Source: Desulfomicrobium sp. (GTDB lineage: Bacteria > Desulfobacterota > Desulfovibrionia > Desulfovibrionales > Desulfomicrobiaceae). Taken from it: DNA of 64,000 bases. Within the stretch, counting starts at the first letter, position 1. Each line of letters opens with the position of its first letter. The position numbers and the translations under genes are program-made. Of this stretch, positions 362 to 44,410 are shown piece by piece. The stretch is taken from assembly GCA_040768745.1 (NCBI GenBank), contig JAXGMI010000001.1, positions 1,120,001-1,184,000 of the forward strand, in the 5' to 3' direction. The notes beneath the pieces are model-generated. The model saw nothing but the letters and a program-made list of their open reading frames with translations. It ran no database searches and was not told where the DNA came from.

Positions 362-1144
362 TCAGCCCAGGGCGTCGAAACTGATGGTGTCGTTCTGGAT
401 GGGAAAGGACGAGGCCTCCGCGGACCCGGGCGCCGCGGCCGCGGCCTTGGCGTGGGCTTCGGACAGCCTGCCCAGGAGGGGGAAGTGCTGGATGGAGAGC
501 AGCTGGTAGTAGGCCAGGGGCAGGGCCTGGTTTTGGCGCAGGGACAGAAACGCTTCGTCGGGGAGGGCGTCCAGGGCCTTGTCGTCGATTTTGAAAATGC
601 CCTGCAGGGTCTTTTCCCCCTGGGGGGTCTTCAGGGTGACGGGCCAGGGCTGGATGAGGCCGTGCTGCTGCAGGGCCGCGCAGGCCCTGGCGGTCAAGAC
701 CCCGCTCTGGGCCTGGAGGTTGAGGGCGCGCATGACCTCGGTCACGGCCGCGGCGGGTTTGCCTTCCCGGTCGTAGAAGTCCTGCCCTTCGGGCCCCTGG
801 CTGTCCGTGACCTGCTCCTCGTCCACCACCAGGACCGGCTGGCCGTCCGGGGTCTGGCGCAGGGAGAAGGGCATGGTCCGGAAGGCCAGGGGCATGTAGG
901 CCGCCAGCCACCCGCCCTTGGGGGAGACGAACAGGTTCCTGCCCGGCTGCAGGCCCAGGATGGCCGCGGGCGTGAAGGCGTCCTTGGCCTGCACGAAGCA
1001 GAGGGGAAAATATACCGCCGCCGTGGACATCTCCACCATGGTCACGGGGACGATGTGGTTCCGGGCGGCCATGGCCAGCCCTGCCGACGTCCGCCAGCGG
1101 GAGGTGGCGTGGCGCTCTCGGGACACGGGAACGAATTTGGGCAT
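362..1144 (-). CDS. sapC: SapC-family protein (associated with S-layer/T1SS loci)
   Basis: Start at ATG 1144 with GAGG RBS. Motifs 'FVPVSRERH', 'YFPLCF', 'AILGLQPGRNLFV...W..AYMPLAFRTMPF', 'IDDKALDALPDEAFLSL...LPLAYYQLLS'. Confidence 0.85.
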   Translation of the reverse strand: MPKFVPVSRERHATSRWRTSAGLAMAARNHIVPVTMVEMSTAAVYFPLCFVQAKDAFTPAAILGLQPGRNLFVSPKGGWLAAYMPLAFRTMPFSLRQTPDGQPVLVVDEEQVTDSQGPEGQDFYDREGKPAAAVTEVMRALNLQAQSGVLTARACAALQQHGLIQPWPVTLKTPQGEKTLQGIFKIDDKALDALPDEAFLSLRQNQALPLAYYQLLSIQHFPLLGRLSEAHAKAAAAAPGSAEASSFPIQNDTISFDALG

Positions 1145-1278: not shown

Positions 1279-1316
1279 TTGACATCCTGATCCGCTCTGT
1301 TAATTTATAAGTTAAC
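1279..1316 (+). promoter_or_regulatory. sigma70 promoter of TAC operon with overlapping palindromic operator
   Basis: TTGACA (1279-1284), 16 nt, extended -10 TGnTAATTT (1298-1306). Near-perfect palindrome GTTAATTTATAAGTTAAC (1299-1316) lies just before the toxin ATG. Confidence 0.7.
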
Positions 1317-1318
1317 CA

Positions 1319-1699
1319 ATGTCAAAGCGCGATCTTCTTTCCGCAATTCTTCCCGGGTCCGAAATAAAGACGGGCATCTGCTACTGGTCGCCGGACGATG
1401 CCTACGGGTTCGAGAAATGGTTGGACGCGTCCCGCATGGACCTGAAGACCAGGAAGAAGCTCGTGGCCCAGCTCACGCTGTACGCCAGGCACGGGCTGCC
1501 CAAAGGGAACAGGGAGAAGTTCCGGCATGTGGAGGGCAAGATCTGCGAGATCAAGCCCACGTCCCAGATCCGCCTCCTGGGGTTCGAGGAGGGCGCGGAT
1601 TTTGTCATCGTGTGCATGGACATCAAGAAGGCAAACAAGCTCTCGCCCGCGCTGATCGAGCGGGCCCAACGGCTCTGGAGGCAGTATCATGAGCGATGA
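1319..1699 (+). CDS. RelE/HigB-superfamily (Gp49-like) toxin
   Basis: 126 aa, basic. 'FEKWL..KKLVAQL..HGLP..EKFRHVEGKICEIK..IRLLGF..FVIV..IKKANKLSPALIERAQR' matches the Gp49/HigB pattern. Lies upstream of an XRE gene. Confidence 0.8.
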   Translation: MSKRDLLSAILPGSEIKTGICYWSPDDAYGFEKWLDASRMDLKTRKKLVAQLTLYARHGLPKGNREKFRHVEGKICEIKPTSQIRLLGFEEGADFVIVCMDIKKANKLSPALIERAQRLWRQYHER

Positions 1700-2096
1700 A
1701 CAGGAGTACGCGGGCTGTCTTGGCGGTATCTACGGCCAGATGTCCGAAGTGGAGCTGCATTTCGAGGAGCTGCTGCATGCGGTGTCCGAGGAGATCAACC
1801 GGGTCATGGTCCAGGGCGGGGTGAACAAGACCGAGCTGGCCTGCCGGATGGAGGTGTCCAAACCCTATGTGACCAGGCTGCTGAACGGCACGGCCAATGT
1901 CAGCCTGCTGACCCTGGCCAAGATTTCCGTGGCCCTGGGGCACAGGGTCGGCGTGACCCTGGTCCCGGCCGGGTGGGAGTCCAGGGTCTTCGCCGTCTCC
2001 CCGCGCAACGAGACCCTCCGGCTGCACCGGCGCGCCCAGTACGACGGGTTCACGGACAAGGACGAACAGGTGGTGGTCAATGCTGAAGGTTATTGA
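1689..2096 (+). CDS. HigA-like XRE HTH antitoxin with C-terminal extension (putative chaperone-addiction ChAD tail)
   Basis: GGAGG RBS; overlaps toxin by 11 nt. HTH 'NKTELACRMEVSKPYVTRLLNGTANVSLLTLAKISVALG' followed by an approximately 40-aa tail. Confidence 0.85.
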   Translation: MSDEQEYAGCLGGIYGQMSEVELHFEELLHAVSEEINRVMVQGGVNKTELACRMEVSKPYVTRLLNGTANVSLLTLAKISVALGHRVGVTLVPAGWESRVFAVSPRNETLRLHRRAQYDGFTDKDEQVVVNAEGY

Positions 2097-2472
2097 TTAC
2101 ATCTTCCCGGAAGTGGAATGCCGGGCCAACCCCGGCTGCCCCGCCAACCCGCAGGAGATCGTCCCGCCCTCGGTGCGCGTCGCCAACCGCCTGGCGGTGA
2201 AGGAGAGCCAGGAGAACATCTACCGGCTGGCCCTGCACATCGAATTCGGCAGGCCCGAGGAGAAATGCTCCTACGTGGGCCAGGTCCGCATCGTGGGCCT
2301 GTTCGCCGCGCAGCCAGACAGGCCCAACCCGGAGACGGTCCTGCTCGTGGCCGGGTCCAGCCTGCTCTACGCCGCGGCCCGCGAATTCATCCTGTCCATC
2401 ACCTCCCGCGGCCCCAACGCCCCCCTCATGCTGCCCATGGTCCGCTTCCAGCCCCGGAAGGCATGTGCATGA
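2080..2472 (+). CDS. SecB-like chaperone (TAC third component)
   Basis: 130 aa; overlaps antitoxin by 17 nt. Beta-strand pattern 'YRLALHIEF..YVGQVRIVGLF' and SecB C-terminal signature 'LLYAAAREFILSITSRGP..PLMLPMVRF'. Confidence 0.8.
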   Translation: MLKVIDYIFPEVECRANPGCPANPQEIVPPSVRVANRLAVKESQENIYRLALHIEFGRPEEKCSYVGQVRIVGLFAAQPDRPNPETVLLVAGSSLLYAAAREFILSITSRGPNAPLMLPMVRFQPRKACA

Positions 2473-2562
2473 CGGGCTGTTTCGTGCAGGCTGCGGGCCG
2501 GCGCAGTCCGGCCCCGGCCTGGAACGGCCCTGATGGCAGGCCAGGTGTGAAGGGCCCCAGAC

Positions 2563-2726: not shown

Positions 2727-3083
2727 ATGAAGAAGTTGTATACGATTTTCTGCGTGGCGGTCCTCGTGCTGGCCATGAGCGGATTTTCTTTTGCTGCGAC
2801 CCAGAAGGGGAAGCTCAGCATCCAGGAGCCGACGGCCCCCCTGATCACCCCTGAGGAGCCGGTCATCCAGGACACGGAGCCGACTGTCACCCTGAGCGCC
2901 CTGGCGCTGCCGGCTACCGAGGATCTGGGGGAGCTGAACGTGCCGCTGGAGCAGCCGTCCTTGCGGTCCGTTAGTCCGGCCATGGTTGTGGAGTCGCCGA
3001 ATGCGGTCCCCGAGCCGACCACCCTGCTGCTGATGGGCGTCGGACTTCTTGGGCTGGCTGGCGTGTACAGAACGCGGCGCTGA
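2727..3083 (+). CDS. Small PEP-CTERM sorting-domain protein (118 aa)
   Basis: AAGGAG RBS, Sec signal peptide, Pro/Thr/Glu-rich middle, C-terminal VPEPTTLLLMGVGLLGLAGVYRTRR. Confidence 0.93.
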   Translation: MKKLYTIFCVAVLVLAMSGFSFAATQKGKLSIQEPTAPLITPEEPVIQDTEPTVTLSALALPATEDLGELNVPLEQPSLRSVSPAMVVESPNAVPEPTTLLLMGVGLLGLAGVYRTRR

Positions 3084-3378
3084 TATTTTCCTGCGCGGGA
3101 ATTGAAAAAGGCGGGGCCTCGAAGCCCTGCCTTTTTTATGGCCCATCCGGTCCGAGCGTCCGCGCACGGACGGATGGCTGTTCGATTTCTGAATGGATAC
3201 GGCACTCAGAAAAGCCGTGGATTGCCACGTGTTCTGCGGGCGGACCCTGAAGGGTATAGACTCGCAATGATGAAAAAATACTCTCGTCGCACGCCAGGCT
3301 CTGCGTGGCGATTCCTCGCAATGACAGGATTCAGACGCATGATCCGTCATCGTGAGGCGTCTTCGCCGTGGCGATCCA
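3084..3378. repeat. Conserved downstream non-coding element, copy 1 (includes CGTC/REP-like inverted elements)
   Basis: Colinear with 4035-4239. Contains hairpin CCATCCGGTCCGAGCGTCCGCGCACGGACGGATGG and inverted pair TGGATTGCCACG..CTCGCAATGA (3218-3270) / CGTCATCGTGAG..CGTGGCGATCCA (3345-3378). Confidence 0.75.
3105..3137 (+). terminator. Intrinsic terminator
   Basis: AAAAAGGCGGGGC-CTCGAA-GCCCTGCC-TTTTTT after PEP-CTERM gene 1. Confidence 0.8.
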
Positions 3379-3478
3379 TCCTTTGTCCGATCGATACCAG
3401 TCGTCTTTTTATTCGCCGTCTCCCAAAAGGTTTCGAACCGCGGCCCCGGTGGCTGGCCGGGTCTGAATGCCAAAAAAT

Positions 3479-3595
3479 TGTATAAAATCTCGAATAGTTG
3501 TCGGGAAACTTTACATCCAGCGGCGGTCCGCATGGGTGCAACCCTGCTTGAATCCAGGAATATCAACGCGTTGACCGTATGGCACGGGTCGTGCA
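3479..3595 (+). promoter_or_regulatory. sigma54 promoter with enhancer and IHF site (PEP-CTERM gene 2)
   Basis: TGTCGGGAAACTTTACA (3499-3515); IHF TATCAACGCGTTG (3561-3573); TGGCACGGGTCGTGCA (3580-3595). Enhancer-to-promoter spacing is identical to copy 1. Confidence 0.8.
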
Positions 3596-3635
3596 AAAAC
3601 ATTTGCTCCAACGATCAAGCAGTAAGGAGTTGATT

Positions 3636-4034
3636 ATGAAGAAGTTGTGTACGATGTCCTGCGTGGCGGTGCTCGTGCTGGCCATGAGCGGTCTTTCCTT
3701 CGCGGCCTCCATGAAGGGCAAGGGTGGCGCCCAGGCCAGCATCCCGGAGACAAATCCCATCCTGGTGGAACTGGCCACGGGGGAGACGCCTGAAGAACCC
3801 GGCCTGGTCGACAATCCCGCGTTCACCGCATCCCTGAACGCCCTGGCGCTGCCAACCACCGGGGACCTGGAGGGTCTGGGGGCACAGGGAGATTCTCTCG
3901 GCGAGAGCCAGAACGAATCGCCACAGGCTGCCATCCAGCAGCCCCAGCCCAACGCGGTTCCCGAACCCACCACCCTGCTGCTGATGGGCATGGGACTGCT
4001 CGGACTGGCAGGCGTGTACAGAACTCGTCGCTGA
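3636..4034 (+). CDS. Small PEP-CTERM sorting-domain protein (132 aa), paralog of 2727-3083
   Basis: AAGGAG RBS, near-identical signal peptide, C-terminal VPEPTTLLLMGMGLLGLAGVYRTRR. Confidence 0.93.
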   Translation: MKKLCTMSCVAVLVLAMSGLSFAASMKGKGGAQASIPETNPILVELATGETPEEPGLVDNPAFTASLNALALPTTGDLEGLGAQGDSLGESQNESPQAAIQQPQPNAVPEPTTLLLMGMGLLGLAGVYRTRR

Positions 4035-4239
4035 TATTTCTCTACAAAAGAATTGAGAAAGGCAGGGCCACACGCCCTGCCTTTTTTCATGGCCCACCGG
4101 TCCGAGCGTCCGCGCACGGACGGATGGTGATTCGATTTCTGATCCGTGACGGCACTCAAAAAAGCCGTGGATTGCCGCGCGCCCTGAAGGGTTGAGACGC
4201 GCAATGTTGGGACTCAGACTCGTGATCCGTCATGGCGAG
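4035..4239. repeat. Conserved downstream non-coding element, copy 2
   Basis: Shares GGTCCGAGCGTCCGCGCACGGACGGATGG, TTCGATTTCTGA, ACGGCACTCA..AAAGCCGTGGATTGCC, CCCTGAAGGGT, CGCAATG and TGATCCGTCAT with copy 1. Confidence 0.75.
4058..4087 (+). terminator. Intrinsic terminator
   Basis: AAAGGCAGGGC-CACAC-GCCCTGCC-TTTTTT. Confidence 0.8.
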
Positions 4240-4251
4240 ACTCGCCATCCG

Positions 4252-5918: not shown

Positions 5919-8411
5919 TTAGGCCCACACGAAGTTGTCGGCGTCGGTCAGGCCGGTCACGCCGGTCAGCTCGATGGCCATATCAGAGCTGTCCAGAGTC
6001 TGACTGCCGTCGACGTCAACATACAGGATGCTGGTCGCGGAATCCAGCACAGCCATTCCAGCAGTGCCGTCCAGAGTGGTCAGCACCGCGCCGTAGCCGT
6101 TGGCGGTGCCGACATATTCGCCGCCAGGAGCAACAGCGCTGAGATCGAGCAGGTCGCCGTCCTTGCCGCCCTGGAAGTTGGTGATGACGTCCACCTTGGT
6201 GCCCTGGGACTGGGCCACAGCGGTGTAGATGTAGGTGTTCACGCCGGCGGCGCCGGTGACGGTCTCCAGGCCGGTGCCGAGGGCCAGGCCCAGGTCGTTG
6301 GTCATGGCCGAGGCGTCGATGGTGTTGGCCGTGGTCGTGGCGCTCAGGTCGAGATAGAGGCCCGTGGCGCCGGTGATGGTGGTGGCCTTCACGGCGTCGG
6401 CATTCAGGGCCAGGGCATAGCCGATGTAGCTGATGTCGATGCCGTCCGTGGTGCCGTCCGCGTCGGTCAAGTCAAAGTCCTTGCAGCGGTTGTCCATGGA
6501 CAGGTTGATGGTCTCCACGCCGTTGATGGTCAGGGTCCCGTAATCCTGGTCGACGTCGTCCCTAACCCCGTCATCACCGCCTTCGGAGTCGCCATTGATG
6601 ACCACGTTGAAGGTCTGGTCGCCGGTGGTGGTCTTCAGGTTCACGACCACGCTCTGACCCGCGCCTTCCTCCTGGTACTCGAGGGTGCCGCCGTCGGTCA
6701 CGTTCTTGATGGTCGTGGTGACATCGTATGAGTAACCGAGGATGACATAGTTGATGTTGTCCAGCAGGGCCATGTCAAAGGTATGGTCCACGTAGTTGTG
6801 GCACAGCTTGATGGCCTCGAAGTTCTGGAAATAGCCGGCGTATCCGGTGGGGATGGTCGCAGCGTCGGCCATTTCGCCGTACATGGCGATGGTGTCGAAC
6901 CCGTCGCCGCCGTCGATGAGGTCGAGCACGGTGCCTTCCTTGGCCAGGAGCGTGGTGCCCAGGTGGATGATGTCGTCGCCCGCGCCGAGGTCGATGTCGA
7001 AGAGGGCTTCAGCGTCGTTCACGTTGTCGGTATGGACCTCGTCGTTGCCGCCGGCGGTGTCGATGATCACATCGCCGTCGCCCTGGCCGGCCATGATCTT
7101 GTCGTTGCCGTCAAAGGTGGTCAGGGTTTTGGTCTTGTCGGTGTCGCCGAGGGCGATGTCATTGTTGCCCTGGGCGCCGGTGACGGTCAGGGGGCCTTCG
7201 CCGCCGCAGATCCCGCGCAGCCACAGGTTGGCGTTCAGGGCCGAGGCGTCCACGGTGGTCAGCTTGTAGGTGTCGTAGCTGTAGCTCGGGTTGAAGCGCA
7301 GGTCCGTGGTGCCGCTGATGTTCAGGGTGGTCATGGCCTCGGCGCCGTACAGCTGCAGGAAGTTGCCGCGGTCGTTGTTGCCGGTGGAGACGATGTTGTA
7401 GATCTCGACGACCTGGTCGCCGTTTTCGTTGTAGATGTCCAGGATGCCGTATTCGCCTTCGATTTCGTCACCGCCACCCAGGTCGTCGTTGTCCAGCAGA
7501 CGGCGGGGGATGGGCCCGACGCCGGCGTTGTCGACAATAACGGTCACTTCGTCGGCATTGCCGGTGAAGACGCTGTTGGAGACAATGAGGTCGAAGTACG
7601 CTTCATCGGTTTCATCGGTGCCCCAGTCCTTGAGGACGACTTCGGAGAAGGCTTCCTTGATGTCATTGACGTACACATCATAGTTGCCGCCTTCCACGCC
7701 GTAGCTCTTGACCCCGCTCCAGAGGGTGGCGGTCAGGTCCAGGTCACTGTCCGCGTAATTGCGGATCACCACGTTCTCGATGCTCTTCAGCTCGACGACG
7801 TTGGCTTCGGAGTAGTCGCTGCTGGCGGTCAGCAGGAAGGTGTCGTTGCCGTCCTTGCCGTCGATGTAGTCGCCGGTGTTGTAGGTGGAGGACAGGGGGC
7901 CGGAGGCCACGCCGCGGAAGGTGTCGGCGAAGGCCGTGCCGTCCAGGTCGTCCACTTCAGAGGTCAGCTCGAAGGTCAGGCCGGGGGTCTGGTTGTCGAT
8001 GAGGGTGCCGTCTTCCAGATAGACCGGTCCGCGGTTGGATTCGAAGCGGCCGTACAGCATGTAGTGCTGCAGGGCGTCCATGCCGGCTTCGGCCACGTCG
8101 GGGTTGTCAGCCAGATAGCGTTCCTTGTCGAAGGCGGTCAGGTCCACGTCATCCCAGGACTCGTTGGGTTTGCGGCCTTCGGCGGCGCCGTAGAGCAGGT
8201 AGTGGGTTAGGTAGTTCATGCCCGAGGCCACGACATCGGGGTTGTTGGCGGCATAGTAGGCGGTGTTGAACTCCGCGTTGGGGTTGCGTTCTTCCAGCCA
8301 GCCCCAGTTCTCCCAGTGCTGCAGGGCTGTCATCTGGCCAGCGGCGACCGCGATCCGAACGTCCTGATACTGAGCCAGATAGTAATCCGCATCAAAAAAC
8401 ATTGTACTCAT
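5919..8411 (-). CDS. T1SS-secreted S-layer-like / Ca-binding beta-roll surface protein (830 aa)
   Basis: No signal peptide; ATG 8411 with GAGG RBS. Three N-terminal 'FDxxYYLxxNPDV..HY..YG..E.R.P' repeats; very Asp/Thr/Gly-rich; RTX-like GxGxD motifs (LGAGDDII, DGGDGFDTI, TAGGNDEV); T1SS-type C-terminus 'DVITNF..DLLDLS..LYVDVDG..IELTGV..NF'. Confidence 0.8.
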   Translation of the reverse strand: MSTMFFDADYYLAQYQDVRIAVAAGQMTALQHWENWGWLEERNPNAEFNTAYYAANNPDVVASGMNYLTHYLLYGAAEGRKPNESWDDVDLTAFDKERYLADNPDVAEAGMDALQHYMLYGRFESNRGPVYLEDGTLIDNQTPGLTFELTSEVDDLDGTAFADTFRGVASGPLSSTYNTGDYIDGKDGNDTFLLTASSDYSEANVVELKSIENVVIRNYADSDLDLTATLWSGVKSYGVEGGNYDVYVNDIKEAFSEVVLKDWGTDETDEAYFDLIVSNSVFTGNADEVTVIVDNAGVGPIPRRLLDNDDLGGGDEIEGEYGILDIYNENGDQVVEIYNIVSTGNNDRGNFLQLYGAEAMTTLNISGTTDLRFNPSYSYDTYKLTTVDASALNANLWLRGICGGEGPLTVTGAQGNNDIALGDTDKTKTLTTFDGNDKIMAGQGDGDVIIDTAGGNDEVHTDNVNDAEALFDIDLGAGDDIIHLGTTLLAKEGTVLDLIDGGDGFDTIAMYGEMADAATIPTGYAGYFQNFEAIKLCHNYVDHTFDMALLDNINYVILGYSYDVTTTIKNVTDGGTLEYQEEGAGQSVVVNLKTTTGDQTFNVVINGDSEGGDDGVRDDVDQDYGTLTINGVETINLSMDNRCKDFDLTDADGTTDGIDISYIGYALALNADAVKATTITGATGLYLDLSATTTANTIDASAMTNDLGLALGTGLETVTGAAGVNTYIYTAVAQSQGTKVDVITNFQGGKDGDLLDLSAVAPGGEYVGTANGYGAVLTTLDGTAGMAVLDSATSILYVDVDGSQTLDSSDMAIELTGVTGLTDADNFVWA

Positions 8412-8659
8412 AACACAACCTCGCAAAAGTAAGTGGTTTTTTAAAAACGTTGAAAAACCGATTGAAAAATTTGCTAGCCCAATGAATTTGCTAAGTCAAC
8501 ATGCCGGTATGTTGCAGCCTCCTTCTCCCCGGACATCTGATTACGGGCTTGTTGGGGCCGCATCGAACCGACTTGGGGAAAGCGTGGCCGATGTCGTGGC
8601 GCCCTGGAGGCACTCCCTCTTTTTGCCTCTGAAAGCCCCAATGATAAAAAACACATCTA

Positions 8660-41893: not shown

Positions 41894-44410
41894 ATGATCG
41901 GTTATTTGACGAAAAAGATATTCGGCTCCAGAAACGACAGATATCTGAAGTCGTTGGGACCCCTTGTGGCTCAGATCAATGCCCTGGAAGAGGGCATGAC
42001 TGCCTTGGCGGATGTGGATTTTCCGGCCCGCATCGCGCGATACCGGGAGGAGGTGGCTGGCGGGCGTGACCTCGATTCCCTGCTGCCCGAGGTCTTCGCC
42101 CTGACCCGCGAAGCCAGCAGACGCGCCCTGAACATGCGCCATTTCGACGTGCAGCTCATGGGCGGGGTCATTCTGCACCAGGGCAAGATCGCCGAAATGA
42201 AGACCGGCGAAGGCAAGACCCTGGTGGCCACGCTGCCCGTGGTCCTGAACGCGCTGTCCGGGAGTGGCGTGCACGTGGTCACGGTCAACGATTACCTGGC
42301 CCGCCGAGACGCGGCCTGGATGGGCAAGCTGTACAATTTTCTGGGACTGTCCGTGGGCGTCATCATCCACGGTCTGACCGATGCCGAGCGTCAGGCGGCC
42401 TACGGTTCCGACGTGACCTACGGAACCAACAACGAGTTCGGGTTCGACTACCTGCGCGACAACATGAAGTTCTACAAGCATCAGCTCGTGCAGCGTGACC
42501 TCAACTACGCCATTGTCGACGAGGTGGACTCCATCCTGATCGACGAGGCGCGCACCCCGCTGATCATTTCCGGGCCTGGCGAAAAATCCACCGCGCTGTA
42601 CGGACGGGTCAACGCCATCATCCCCAAGCTGGTCCGGGAGGAACATTTTTCCATCGACGAAAAGGCCCGCACCGTGGTCCTGACCGACGAGGGCGTGGTC
42701 CACTGCGAGAAGATTCTGGGGGTGAACAACCTGTTTGATCCCTCCAACATCACCCTGCAGCACCATATCCTGCAGGCCTTGCGCGCCCACTACCTCTTTG
42801 CCTGCGACGATCACTACATCGTCAAGGACGGGCAGGTGGTCATCGTCGACGAGTTCACGGGCCGGCTCATGCCCGGCCGGCGCTTCAGCGACGGGTTGCA
42901 CCAGGCCCTGGAGGCCAAGGAAGGGGTCAAGGTCGAGGCCGAAAACCAGACCCTGGCCAGCATCACCTTTCAGAATTTTTTCCGCATGTACGCGAAGCTG
43001 GCCGGCATGACCGGCACGGCAGACACGGAAGCCGTGGAGTTCCAGCAGATCTACGGCCTGGAAGTCATTGTCGCGCCACCGAACAAGACCATGATTCGCA
43101 AGGATTTCCCGGACGTCATCCTGAAGACCCAGGTGGAGAAGTTCAGCGCCATCGTGGAGGAGATCCGCGCCCTGCACGTCAAGGGGCAGCCCGTGCTGGT
43201 CGGCACTACGTCCATCGAGAAGTCTGAGTACATCTCGGGACTGCTCAAGAAAAAGCACATCCCGCACGAGGTCCTGAACGCCAAATACCATGAGAAGGAA
43301 GCGGAGATCGTGGCCCTGGCCGGACAGAAGGGCCGGGTGACCATCGCCACCAACATGGCCGGCCGGGGCACGGACATCGTGCTCGGGGAGGGCGTGCGTG
43401 AGCTGGGCGGGCTGCACATCCTGGGCTCGGAGCGTCACGAGAGCCGGCGCATCGACAACCAGCTGCGCGGCCGGGCCGGCCGCCAAGGCGATCCCGGATC
43501 GTCGCGCTTCTACCTGGCCCTGGACGACACTCTCATGCGTCTTTTTGGTTCCGAGCGCATCGCCGGCATCATGGAGAAGCTCGGTCTGGAAGACGGGCAG
43601 ACCATCGAAAACAGCCTCATCACCCGATCCATCGAGAACGCCCAGAAGCGGGTGGAGGGGCACAATTTTGAAATACGCAAGCAGCTCCTGGAATACGACG
43701 ACGTCATGAACCAGCAACGCGAGGTCATCTACTCCCTGCGCCGCGAACTCATGACCACGGAGGATCTGCAGGATACGGTGGAGGAGTTCATCGACGATCT
43801 GCTGGCCGAGGTTTACGAGCCGTTGGACAACCGCAAGGGCAGGACCGAGCCGCTGGACGAGGTCCGGGCCATGATCCGCTCCAAGCTGGACGAGATTTTC
43901 GCCCTGGAACGGGTGGTGGAGCCCGGGAAGTTCGTGGAAAAAGAGGAGGCCCAGGCCAGGATTCTGTCCATTCTTGATACGCATCGGGCCGCAGCCCCGG
44001 ACCAGTACCAGGAGGTGTTGCGTTTCTTTCTCCTCGACGCGTTGGACCGCAACTGGAAGGACCACCTGTTGCAGATGGATTACCTCAAGGAGGGCATCGG
44101 TCTGCGCGGCTATGCCCAGCGCGATCCCAAACAGGAATATAAACGCGAAGGTTTTGAACTGTTCGAGGATCTGCTCTTCCGCATCCGGGAAAACACCATG
44201 AAGGCCCTGACCCACCTGCGGATCGAGGTGGTCAAGCAGGAAGAACTCAAGCACGAGGAGCAGGACAACGTGAAGTACGCGGGTGGGAGCGAGCCGGCGG
44301 AAAGCAAGCCCGACACCGTGCGCCGGGCCGACCCCAAGGTCGGGCGCAACGACCCCTGCCCCTGCGGGAGCGGTCAGAAGTACAAGAAATGCTGCGGTAG
44401 GCAGGCATGA
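41894..44410 (+). CDS. secA: Preprotein translocase ATPase
   Basis: 'MKTGEGKT', '[14 protein letters not shown]', '[11 protein letters not shown]', C-terminal '[18 protein letters not shown]'. Confidence 0.99.

Follow-up and report, generated by a model that had tools for sequence, protein, structure and literature searches.

Introduction

Toxin-antitoxin-chaperone (TAC) operons, in which a toxin-antitoxin (TA) pair is followed by a gene for a SecB-like protein, are known from the delta-proteobacteria. Table S1 of PMC3581621 gives eight of them, including those of Desulfatibacillum, Desulfobacca, Desulfohalobium and Desulfobacterium, and also names those of Pelobacter, Syntrophus and Geobacter; four of the eight belong, by name, to sulfate reducers, and a position outside prophages is usual in that survey. 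Outside the alpha-, beta- and gamma-proteobacteria, SecB was reported to be TA-linked in 44 of 70 cases (PMC4257090), and the HigBA-type TAC of Geobacter lovleyi (Glov_3492-3490) has been described as needing its chaperone in E. coli (PMC5105189). The E. coli TACs HigBAC, CmdTAC and MqsRAC are reported to protect against phage (10.1101/2024.02.24.581848; PMC11618068). Here we describe an operon of this kind in a 64,000-nucleotide stretch of the genome of a Desulfomicrobium sp. (assembly GCA_040768745.1, contig JAXGMI010000001.1, positions 1,120,001 to 1,184,000), hereafter the window, in which all positions are counted from the first letter. The operon encodes a HigB-like toxin, a HigA-like antitoxin and a SecB-like chaperone. 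The genome carries dsrA above cut-off, in agreement with the sulfate-reducing host that had been proposed from the letters of the window in an earlier reading (the original prediction). Given the catalogued TACs of sulfate reducers and the validated one of Geobacter, a TAC outside a prophage in such a host is to be expected, and the present one is not new in kind. What it adds is a HigBA-type TAC whose tail is short and whose chaperone is 13-22% identical to solved SecB proteins.

Results

The operon classifies as a TAC by every sequence test that we applied. Its three open reading frames (ORFs) are co-oriented and overlap by 11 nt (toxin and antitoxin) and 17 nt (antitoxin and chaperone), at the positions first given for them (Table 1), and all three proteins exceed their Pfam cut-offs: the toxin as Gp49 (29.6 bits, cut-off 23.9), the antitoxin at residues 36-87 as HTH_26 (30.1 bits, cut-off 22) and HTH_3 (27.4 bits, cut-off 23), and the chaperone as SecB (29.7 bits, cut-off 26). 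The folds expected for them were also recovered. An AlphaFold model of the toxin, built from a 28-row alignment (pLDDT 92), has its best PDB matches in HigB 6af3/6af4, followed by 7awk/7nbu; the closest solved toxin is S. pneumoniae HigB (6AF3/6AF4; fold search E 3e-6, TM 0.62), and the toxin profile matches 6af3 at 2.3e-8. The antitoxin profile matches HigA, an XRE-type protein (6af3_B), across positions 1-89 at 2e-6. For the chaperone, a model built from a 125-row alignment (pLDDT 93) has E. coli and H. influenzae SecB (1qyn, 1ozb, 1fx3) and M. tuberculosis Rv1957 (5mtw) as its top fold matches (TM 0.62-0.66), and the corresponding profile matches SecB at 1e-13 and Rv1957 at 0.006, which gives the third gene a SecB fold. 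The order of toxin, antitoxin and chaperone recurs in 12 of 20 other SecB-like matches of the order Desulfovibrionales and in 17 of 24 metagenome loci, which places the arrangement beyond chance and bears out the TAC architecture of the original prediction. The three folds, the gene order and, as described below, the antitoxin tail and a conserved operator are established by sequence and models.

The toxin is predicted to be a ribosome-dependent mRNase. Its E77, K79, R85 and K103 align with E66, R68, R73 and K92 of S. pneumoniae HigB (by our own mapping, which subtracts 20 from the 6AF3 chain numbers to arrive at those of PMC9098466), and these residues correspond, according to PMC9098466, to catalytic ones in HigB1 and RelE. 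Neither R85 nor K103 varies among the 28 aligned toxins. The RelE fold of Gp49/HigB toxins is found together with its basic catalytic residues, though the position of F90/F93 is an Asp here.

The antitoxin combines an XRE-type helix-turn-helix (HTH) domain with an aromatic C-terminal extension that is missing in two-gene relatives. If the tail is taken, with the alignment as anchor, to begin where the closing beta-strand of the HTH domain ends, it comprises 44 aa, close to the 40 or so first estimated. Tails are 38-92 aa long (median 48) in 41 antitoxins whose gene is followed by a SecB-like one and 1-33 aa long (median 10) in 20 partners of chaperone-less Gp49 toxins, and the two ranges do not overlap. 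The latter come from 35 genomes within the same family, which contain 28 Gp49 loci beside that of the window; all 28 are without a same-strand SecB-like ORF, 20 have a detectable HTH partner and the 8 that do not were left out. Across these sequences a long tail is specific to TAC antitoxins. Its aromatic residues are W96, F101, Y118, F121 and Y135, of which W96, F101 and F121 are invariant across six close homologues, and a W-F/Y-type aromatic motif recurs at the tail position in a 31-row alignment, which agrees with the aromatic ChAD motifs given in PMC6377645 and 10.1101/2024.02.24.581848. By analogy with these systems the antitoxin probably needs its chaperone. The tail ends in Gly-Tyr and not in the Ala-Ala or Val-Ala that, according to 10.1101/2024.02.24.581848, forms the ClpXP degron in CmdA and HigA1, which sets it apart from the ClpXP-dependent TAC subtype; none of nine antitoxins in the clade of the window ends in Ala, as against 26 of 32 others (22 of them in Ala-Ala or Val-Ala). 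The same study reports that HigA of E. coli NT1F31 lacks a terminal degron and is protease-independent, and the antitoxin described here may likewise be inactivated by aggregation rather than by ClpXP.

Upstream of the toxin, a predicted promoter pairs TTGACA with a -10 box, TAATTT, that is preceded by TG at 1298-1299. The original prediction had given the operon a promoter of its own; the TTGACA at 1279 and a shared geometry (TTGAC[AT]-N16-18-TAnnnT in 23 of 31 related leaders) argue for this, but a consensus promoter scan did not list the promoter at 1279, because TAATTT matches only three of the six positions of the -10 consensus. The -10 box lies in the first half of an 18-nt palindrome that stops 2 nt ahead of the toxin ATG and whose core, TTAAY-N6-RTTAA, occurs once in the 3.09-Mb genome. 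With up to one mismatch allowed, 28 of 31 TAC leaders have this operator; none of the 22 leaders of chaperone-less Gp49 genes has it, and among 3000 random 72-mers the rate is 1.9%. It is retained in 24 of 27 TAC leaders once the four that defined it are removed. (Related loci are given by L numbers; the leader set omits the near-duplicates L013, L014, L016, L020-L022, L040 and L043, and also L018 and L066, whose starts are uncertain.) We infer that the operator is the binding site of the XRE antitoxin and that autorepression by the antitoxin is combined with low translation of the toxin. Transcription starts 6-8 nt from a -10 box, and the distance from the -10 box to the toxin ATG is 12 nt, so that the toxin mRNA would be near-leaderless, with a leader of 5-7 nt. 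Such a leader is too short for a Shine-Dalgarno site, none is seen ahead of the toxin start, and translation of the toxin would consequently be weak. The antitoxin is preceded by GGAGG at 1677-1681, 7 nt upstream of its start.

We consider it very probable, from these features and by comparison with described systems, that the operon works as a chaperone-addicted HigBA-type TAC. One promoter would yield a tricistronic mRNA from whose short leader the toxin would be translated weakly and, by way of GGAGG, the antitoxin more strongly. A dimer of the antitoxin would bind the toxin and repress the promoter at the palindrome, and the aromatic tail would render the antitoxin aggregation-prone unless held by a tetramer of the SecB-like protein. 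Titration of the chaperone by a phage structural protein or another unfolded client would then inactivate the antitoxin and lift the repression, upon which freed HigB would cut mRNA on ribosomes and translation would stop. Whether a phage protein is the natural trigger, with abortive infection as the outcome, we judge to be evenly balanced, on the analogy with HigBAC, CmdTAC and MqsRAC and on prophage-borne relatives.

Table 1. The TAC operon, its control elements and the adjoining genes, in window coordinates.
Feature	Position	Strand	Details
Predicted sigma-70-type promoter	1279-1306	+	-35 TTGACA 1279-1284, 16-nt spacer, -10 TAATTT 1301-1306
Palindromic operator, TTAAY-N6-RTTAA core	1299-1316	.	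inverted repeat over the -10 box
HigB-like (Gp49, RelE fold) toxin	1319-1699	+	126 aa; PF05973
HigA-like XRE antitoxin	1689-2096	+	135 aa; HTH_3/HTH_26
Antitoxin C-terminal tail, candidate ChAD	1962-2093	+	44 residues; length against controls
SecB-like chaperone	2080-2472	+	130 aa; PF02556, model and fold search
GC-rich hairpin, possible transcript end	2474-2531	+	weak, no U tract
sapC, divergent from the operon (context)	362-1144	-	PF07277
Type I secretion genes (context)	end at 261		TIGR01843; ABC/OEP/HlyD genes upstream
Two small PEP-CTERM genes (context)	2727-4034	+	PF07589

Several observations weigh against this mechanism. The toxin has Asp101 at the aromatic F90/F93 position of HigB; the two sets behind the tail contrast contain near-duplicates and belong to different Gp49 subfamilies, and so do not amount to independent tests; and relatives of the module decay, the toxin being lost in L007 and carrying frame-breaking changes in L009 and L044. 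It is conceivable, then, that the toxin is inactive or the antitoxin chaperone-independent, and that the module is decaying toward the toxin-less pair of its sister lineage. That lineage is L007 (1598-2614), which has the nearest relative of the chaperone (74% identical) and retains promoter, operator, antitoxin and chaperone, while its 370-nt toxin interval is reduced to a stop-ridden remnant of 184 nt. The missing terminal degron would fit such a course, and M. tuberculosis HigB2 and HigB3 are reported to be non-toxic despite their fold (PMC9098466). The toxin ORF of the window is intact, however, with all four of R85, K103, E77 and K79; a non-aromatic residue at position 101 is common to all close homologues; the three toxin differences among those listed from strains of other studies are all synonymous; and the toxin has a dN/dS of about 0.14 against L008 (dN 0.31, dS 2.15). 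Antitoxin and chaperone, compared with L007, give dN/dS values of 0.27/1.9 and 0.18/1.33, and on these comparisons (most other pairs being saturated) all three genes are under purifying selection. Decay of the present module thus appears improbable. Two further observations concern these relatives: protein-collection clusters of 11 antitoxins and 11 chaperones resemble the L007 form, and in L009 (4077-4853) one base missing from an A-run produces a 258-aa toxin-antitoxin fusion, which may be an assembly error.

The sequencing runs that contain the stretch come from digesters, sludge and wastewater. The operon was also found, 96-99% identical, in strains from three other studies, and one contig links it to sapC; the contigs of these studies cease to match at 2462, the last residues of the chaperone and the DNA downstream varying between strains. 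A contig from an RNA library spans 1327-2564 with zero differences and gaps at the promoter and past the hairpin; coming from one study, possibly that of the genome itself, and being a contig, which cannot demonstrate a transcript, it is a hint and not evidence. The hairpin has a fold z of -1.84, with 12 of 200 shuffles equally good, and has no entry in the output of the terminator scan. Farther downstream, the two PEP-CTERM genes are short and in tandem, and the DNA that follows them is repeated (2727-4250); the RNA-library contig skips 3146-4097 by way of a shared stretch of 31 nt, either because the second copy is deleted or through misassembly. Short repeats within 3085-3640 are present elsewhere in the genome.

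The spread of the chaperone gene in the order is patchy. With a narrow profile it was detected in two of 60 relatives and in none of 24 congeners. A wide profile, run on 400 other genomes of the order, matched SecB-like genes in 20, including one congener, where the operon is of MqsRA type. A TA pair precedes 17 of these 20 matches, comprising 12 of Gp49-XRE-SecB type (L044 with a shortened toxin), two HigB-killer, two MqsRA and one with an ADP-ribosyltransferase (ART) toxin; of the remainder one is cut by a contig end, one is a fragment and one is solitary beside an omptin gene (L057:138-1938). Across the phylum 31 of 400 other genomes match the SecB-like profile, and TACs are mixed with solitary genes. 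Among the 24 metagenome loci, toxin and antitoxin matches are present in 17, among which L009 with its gapped A-run is counted, five are cut by contig ends, and the exceptions are L021, with a broken antitoxin, and L007, without its toxin; 15 pattern matches in genome contigs held no relative. In the chaperone tree the window groups with L007, L008, L009/L040 and L042 (support 100/99).

Other TA families occur beside SecB-like genes in these sets. L063 (886-1989, genome G784) has BrnT, a BrnA with a long tail ending in Ala-Ala and a SecB-like gene, a BrnTA-type TAC that the available part of PMC11980606 does not describe; its chaperone clusters with those of Gp49 type. L049 and L050 (G342, G345), in a prophage that also has terminase and holin genes and an IetA-like gene, pair HigB-killer (PF05015) and a HigA with a 70-aa tail with a SecB-like gene of the Gp49-type branch, which on family and tree is a TA swap on the same chaperone. 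CmdTAC-like operons with an ART toxin (L054, L084) and MqsRAC-like operons (L055, in the congener, L058, L067, L073, L076, L077, L079) are found in the same order and phylum. Apart from that of L057, solitary SecB-like genes with no TA pair ahead of them form three groups (L081, L085, L086; L065, L068, L070; L080, L083, L087): one of three loci behind a gene that we take, from its sequence, to be uvrA-like, and two in families where every sampled genome matches. These are possibly the housekeeping SecB of their lineages.

The surroundings of the operon bear on what its trigger might be. Glycosyltransferases, an STT3/PglB oligosaccharyltransferase, Wzm/Wzt and a set of type I secretion proteins are encoded in the 20 kb upstream of the window and in its first 27 kb. 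None of the 76 genes scanned in the window and the 20 kb upstream belongs to a phage or integrase family. With the nearest Phage_integrase match 167 kb off and the nearest tRNAs more than 120 kb away, a prophage or integrative element at the site was rejected, and the setting is the non-prophage, cell-surface one that had first been claimed, with glycan, secretion and PEP-CTERM genes around. About 19 kb upstream there is a fragment of an ISXO2-like transposase gene. The composition of the operon (GC 59-67%; GC3 0.84-0.90, the median for long genes of the genome being 0.79) shows no sign of recent import. Within the glycosylation cluster, about 12 kb upstream, a PrlF-YhaV pair is accompanied by a small DUF6364 gene (L001:8081-8844). 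On the downstream side, 5919-8426 (minus strand) encodes an acidic protein of 835 aa near the type I secretion system (T1SS) genes and sapC that has no Pfam, PHROG or PADLOC match; it is probably a secreted surface protein, and 'S-layer-like' is our guess.

A phage role has several findings against it. PADLOC matches the three genes with generic HTH models only and yields nothing but ABC-ATPase cross-hits among 32 neighbours; the chaperone has no relative among 50,697 GenBank phages, where one weak match was found for a relative; and the four closest loci (L005, L007, L008 and L009, of which L005 and L009 are near-identical) lie in surface-polysaccharide clusters and not in prophages. The same TAC mechanism might instead serve an addiction or stress module of horizontally exchanged surface-glycan clusters, set off by proteotoxic stress or when the locus is lost, and thereby stabilising the island or slowing growth, which we hold to be a tentative but serious possibility. 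It accords with the glycosyltransferase, epimerase and aminotransferase genes around the operon of the window and those of the four closest loci, with the second TA pair, PrlF-YhaV, in the region, with the lack of defence neighbours and with the stress induction reported for the M. tuberculosis TAC (PMC3968373). Related modules do, however, recur in prophages. Of 16 related loci with flanks (about 7.5 kb per side where present; L039 only two ORFs), four are in surface-polysaccharide, one in IS-rich (insertion sequence) and six in other chromosomal settings, and five are prophage-like: L031, L039, L122, L123 and L125, the last of HigB-killer type. In L031, on a viral contig, the gene immediately ahead of the module is a repressor-like HTH gene, as has been described for HigBAC, and the three E. 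coli TACs that were tested protect against phage. No contig joining across the operon was seen in four runs, so that loss of the island was not observed, which proves little. L031 is the one real relative among three matches in viral contigs (L032 and L033, matches of 12 residues, were dropped); in plasmids there was no match for the antitoxin and one MqsA-type TAC, of Cupriavidus. A BFVD fold search found SecB-like proteins in phages (five matches below 0.001), which is uninformative on this locus.

The chaperone is the sole SecB-family gene of the genome. A housekeeping SecB was rejected for it, since it scores 22-24 bits against NCBIfam equivalog cut-offs of 103-143 and lies within a TA operon. 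The secA gene at 41894-44407 of the window, 40 kb downstream, retains the C-terminal SEC-C motif in a genome that has no housekeeping SecB. One could suppose that the SecB-like protein also serves the export of T1SS, S-layer-like and PEP-CTERM proteins, the toxin reporting export load. T1SS genes and sapC adjoin the operon, SecB is reported to serve T1SS export of HasA without contact to SecA (PMC4257090), and the chaperone of the Geobacter TAC can, when overexpressed, replace E. coli SecB (PMC5105189). Yet one of three SecA-binding acidic positions is kept (E11, R15 and Q68 for SecB D20, E24 and E77), the gene stands under an antitoxin-type operator, and the flanks of the 16 related loci hold no T1SS gene. 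Three congeners with sapC give no match to the narrow chaperone profile, and in the order as a whole 380 of 401 genomes lack any match, from which it follows that export does not need a SecB-like protein. An export role of this kind we regard as very improbable.

A variant that joins the TAC mechanism to this setting would make the operon a degron-less TAC lineage of sulfate-reducer surface-glycan loci, in which the genome's only SecB-like protein acts as a shared sensor. Precursors of the neighbouring T1SS and S-layer-like proteins, or phage proteins that jam their export, would compete with the antitoxin tail for the chaperone, and a cell with overloaded envelope export would stop translating. 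We advance this as a long shot.

Discussion

The chaperone of the operon might be added, as a new phage sensor, to the modular toolbox of TACs. If the operon serves in phage defence, it would bear on the phage control of sulfide-producing bacteria in digesters. If native export clients were the trigger, an old question about TACs would be settled: a link between export and toxin has long been proposed for them (PMC4257090), and with a shared sensor this would become the first TAC for which native clients are shown to tie toxin release to protein export. The conserved operator and the near-leaderless toxin start offer a ready regulatory model for many TACs of the phylum, and we found no published description, in a mostly open-access literature, of the operator, of the near-leaderless start or of the habit of residing in glycan clusters.

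The delta-proteobacterial TACs of PMC3581621, with that of G. lovleyi, resemble the operon in their HigB-HigA-SecB order, in a short C-terminal tail (residues 86-115 of Glov-HigA; PMC5105189) and in their hosts, a likeness of description and not of aligned sequence; a search for the Geobacter TAC locus by its published primer gave 0 matches. The Glov locus adjoins integrase and phage genes (PMC3581621, Table S2), whereas the present operon does not. HigB1-HigA1-Rv1957 of M. tuberculosis is alike in its Gp49-family toxin (fold match 7awk/7nbu), in an XRE antitoxin with a tail of about 45 aa, in a SecB-fold chaperone (5mtw, TM 0.65) and in its chromosomal position, at identities of 13% for the chaperone and 19-21% for the toxin. 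It is reported to be autorepressed at a palindrome, from leaders of 51 and 29 nt (PMC3968373); here the palindrome is conserved, autorepression is predicted from it, and the leader would be 5-7 nt. HigA1, a ClpXP substrate, ends in Val-Ala (10.1101/2024.02.24.581848), and the antitoxin of the window in Gly-Tyr.

HigBAC of E. coli NT1F31 shares a HigB RNase, an aromatic ChAD, the SecB-like HigC and the absence of a terminal degron, and it sits behind a repressor-like gene, as does the related L031 in its viral contig. Compared by description, HigBAC is prophage-borne, is triggered by lambda gpV and has a tail of 96 aa with four spaced aromatics (all 10.1101/2024.02.24.581848), whereas the present operon lies in a glycan/T1SS region and has a tail of 44 aa. 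S. pneumoniae HigBA (6AF3/6AF4) contributes the closest solved toxin and an antitoxin that matches profile positions 1-89, but its antitoxin chain of 97 aa is without a tail and it has no chaperone. CmdTAC and MqsRAC differ in their toxins, an ADP-ribosyltransferase and MqsR, and their chaperones are on separate branches of the tree, yet they share the logic of chaperone addiction and have examples in the same order (L054, L055 and L058).

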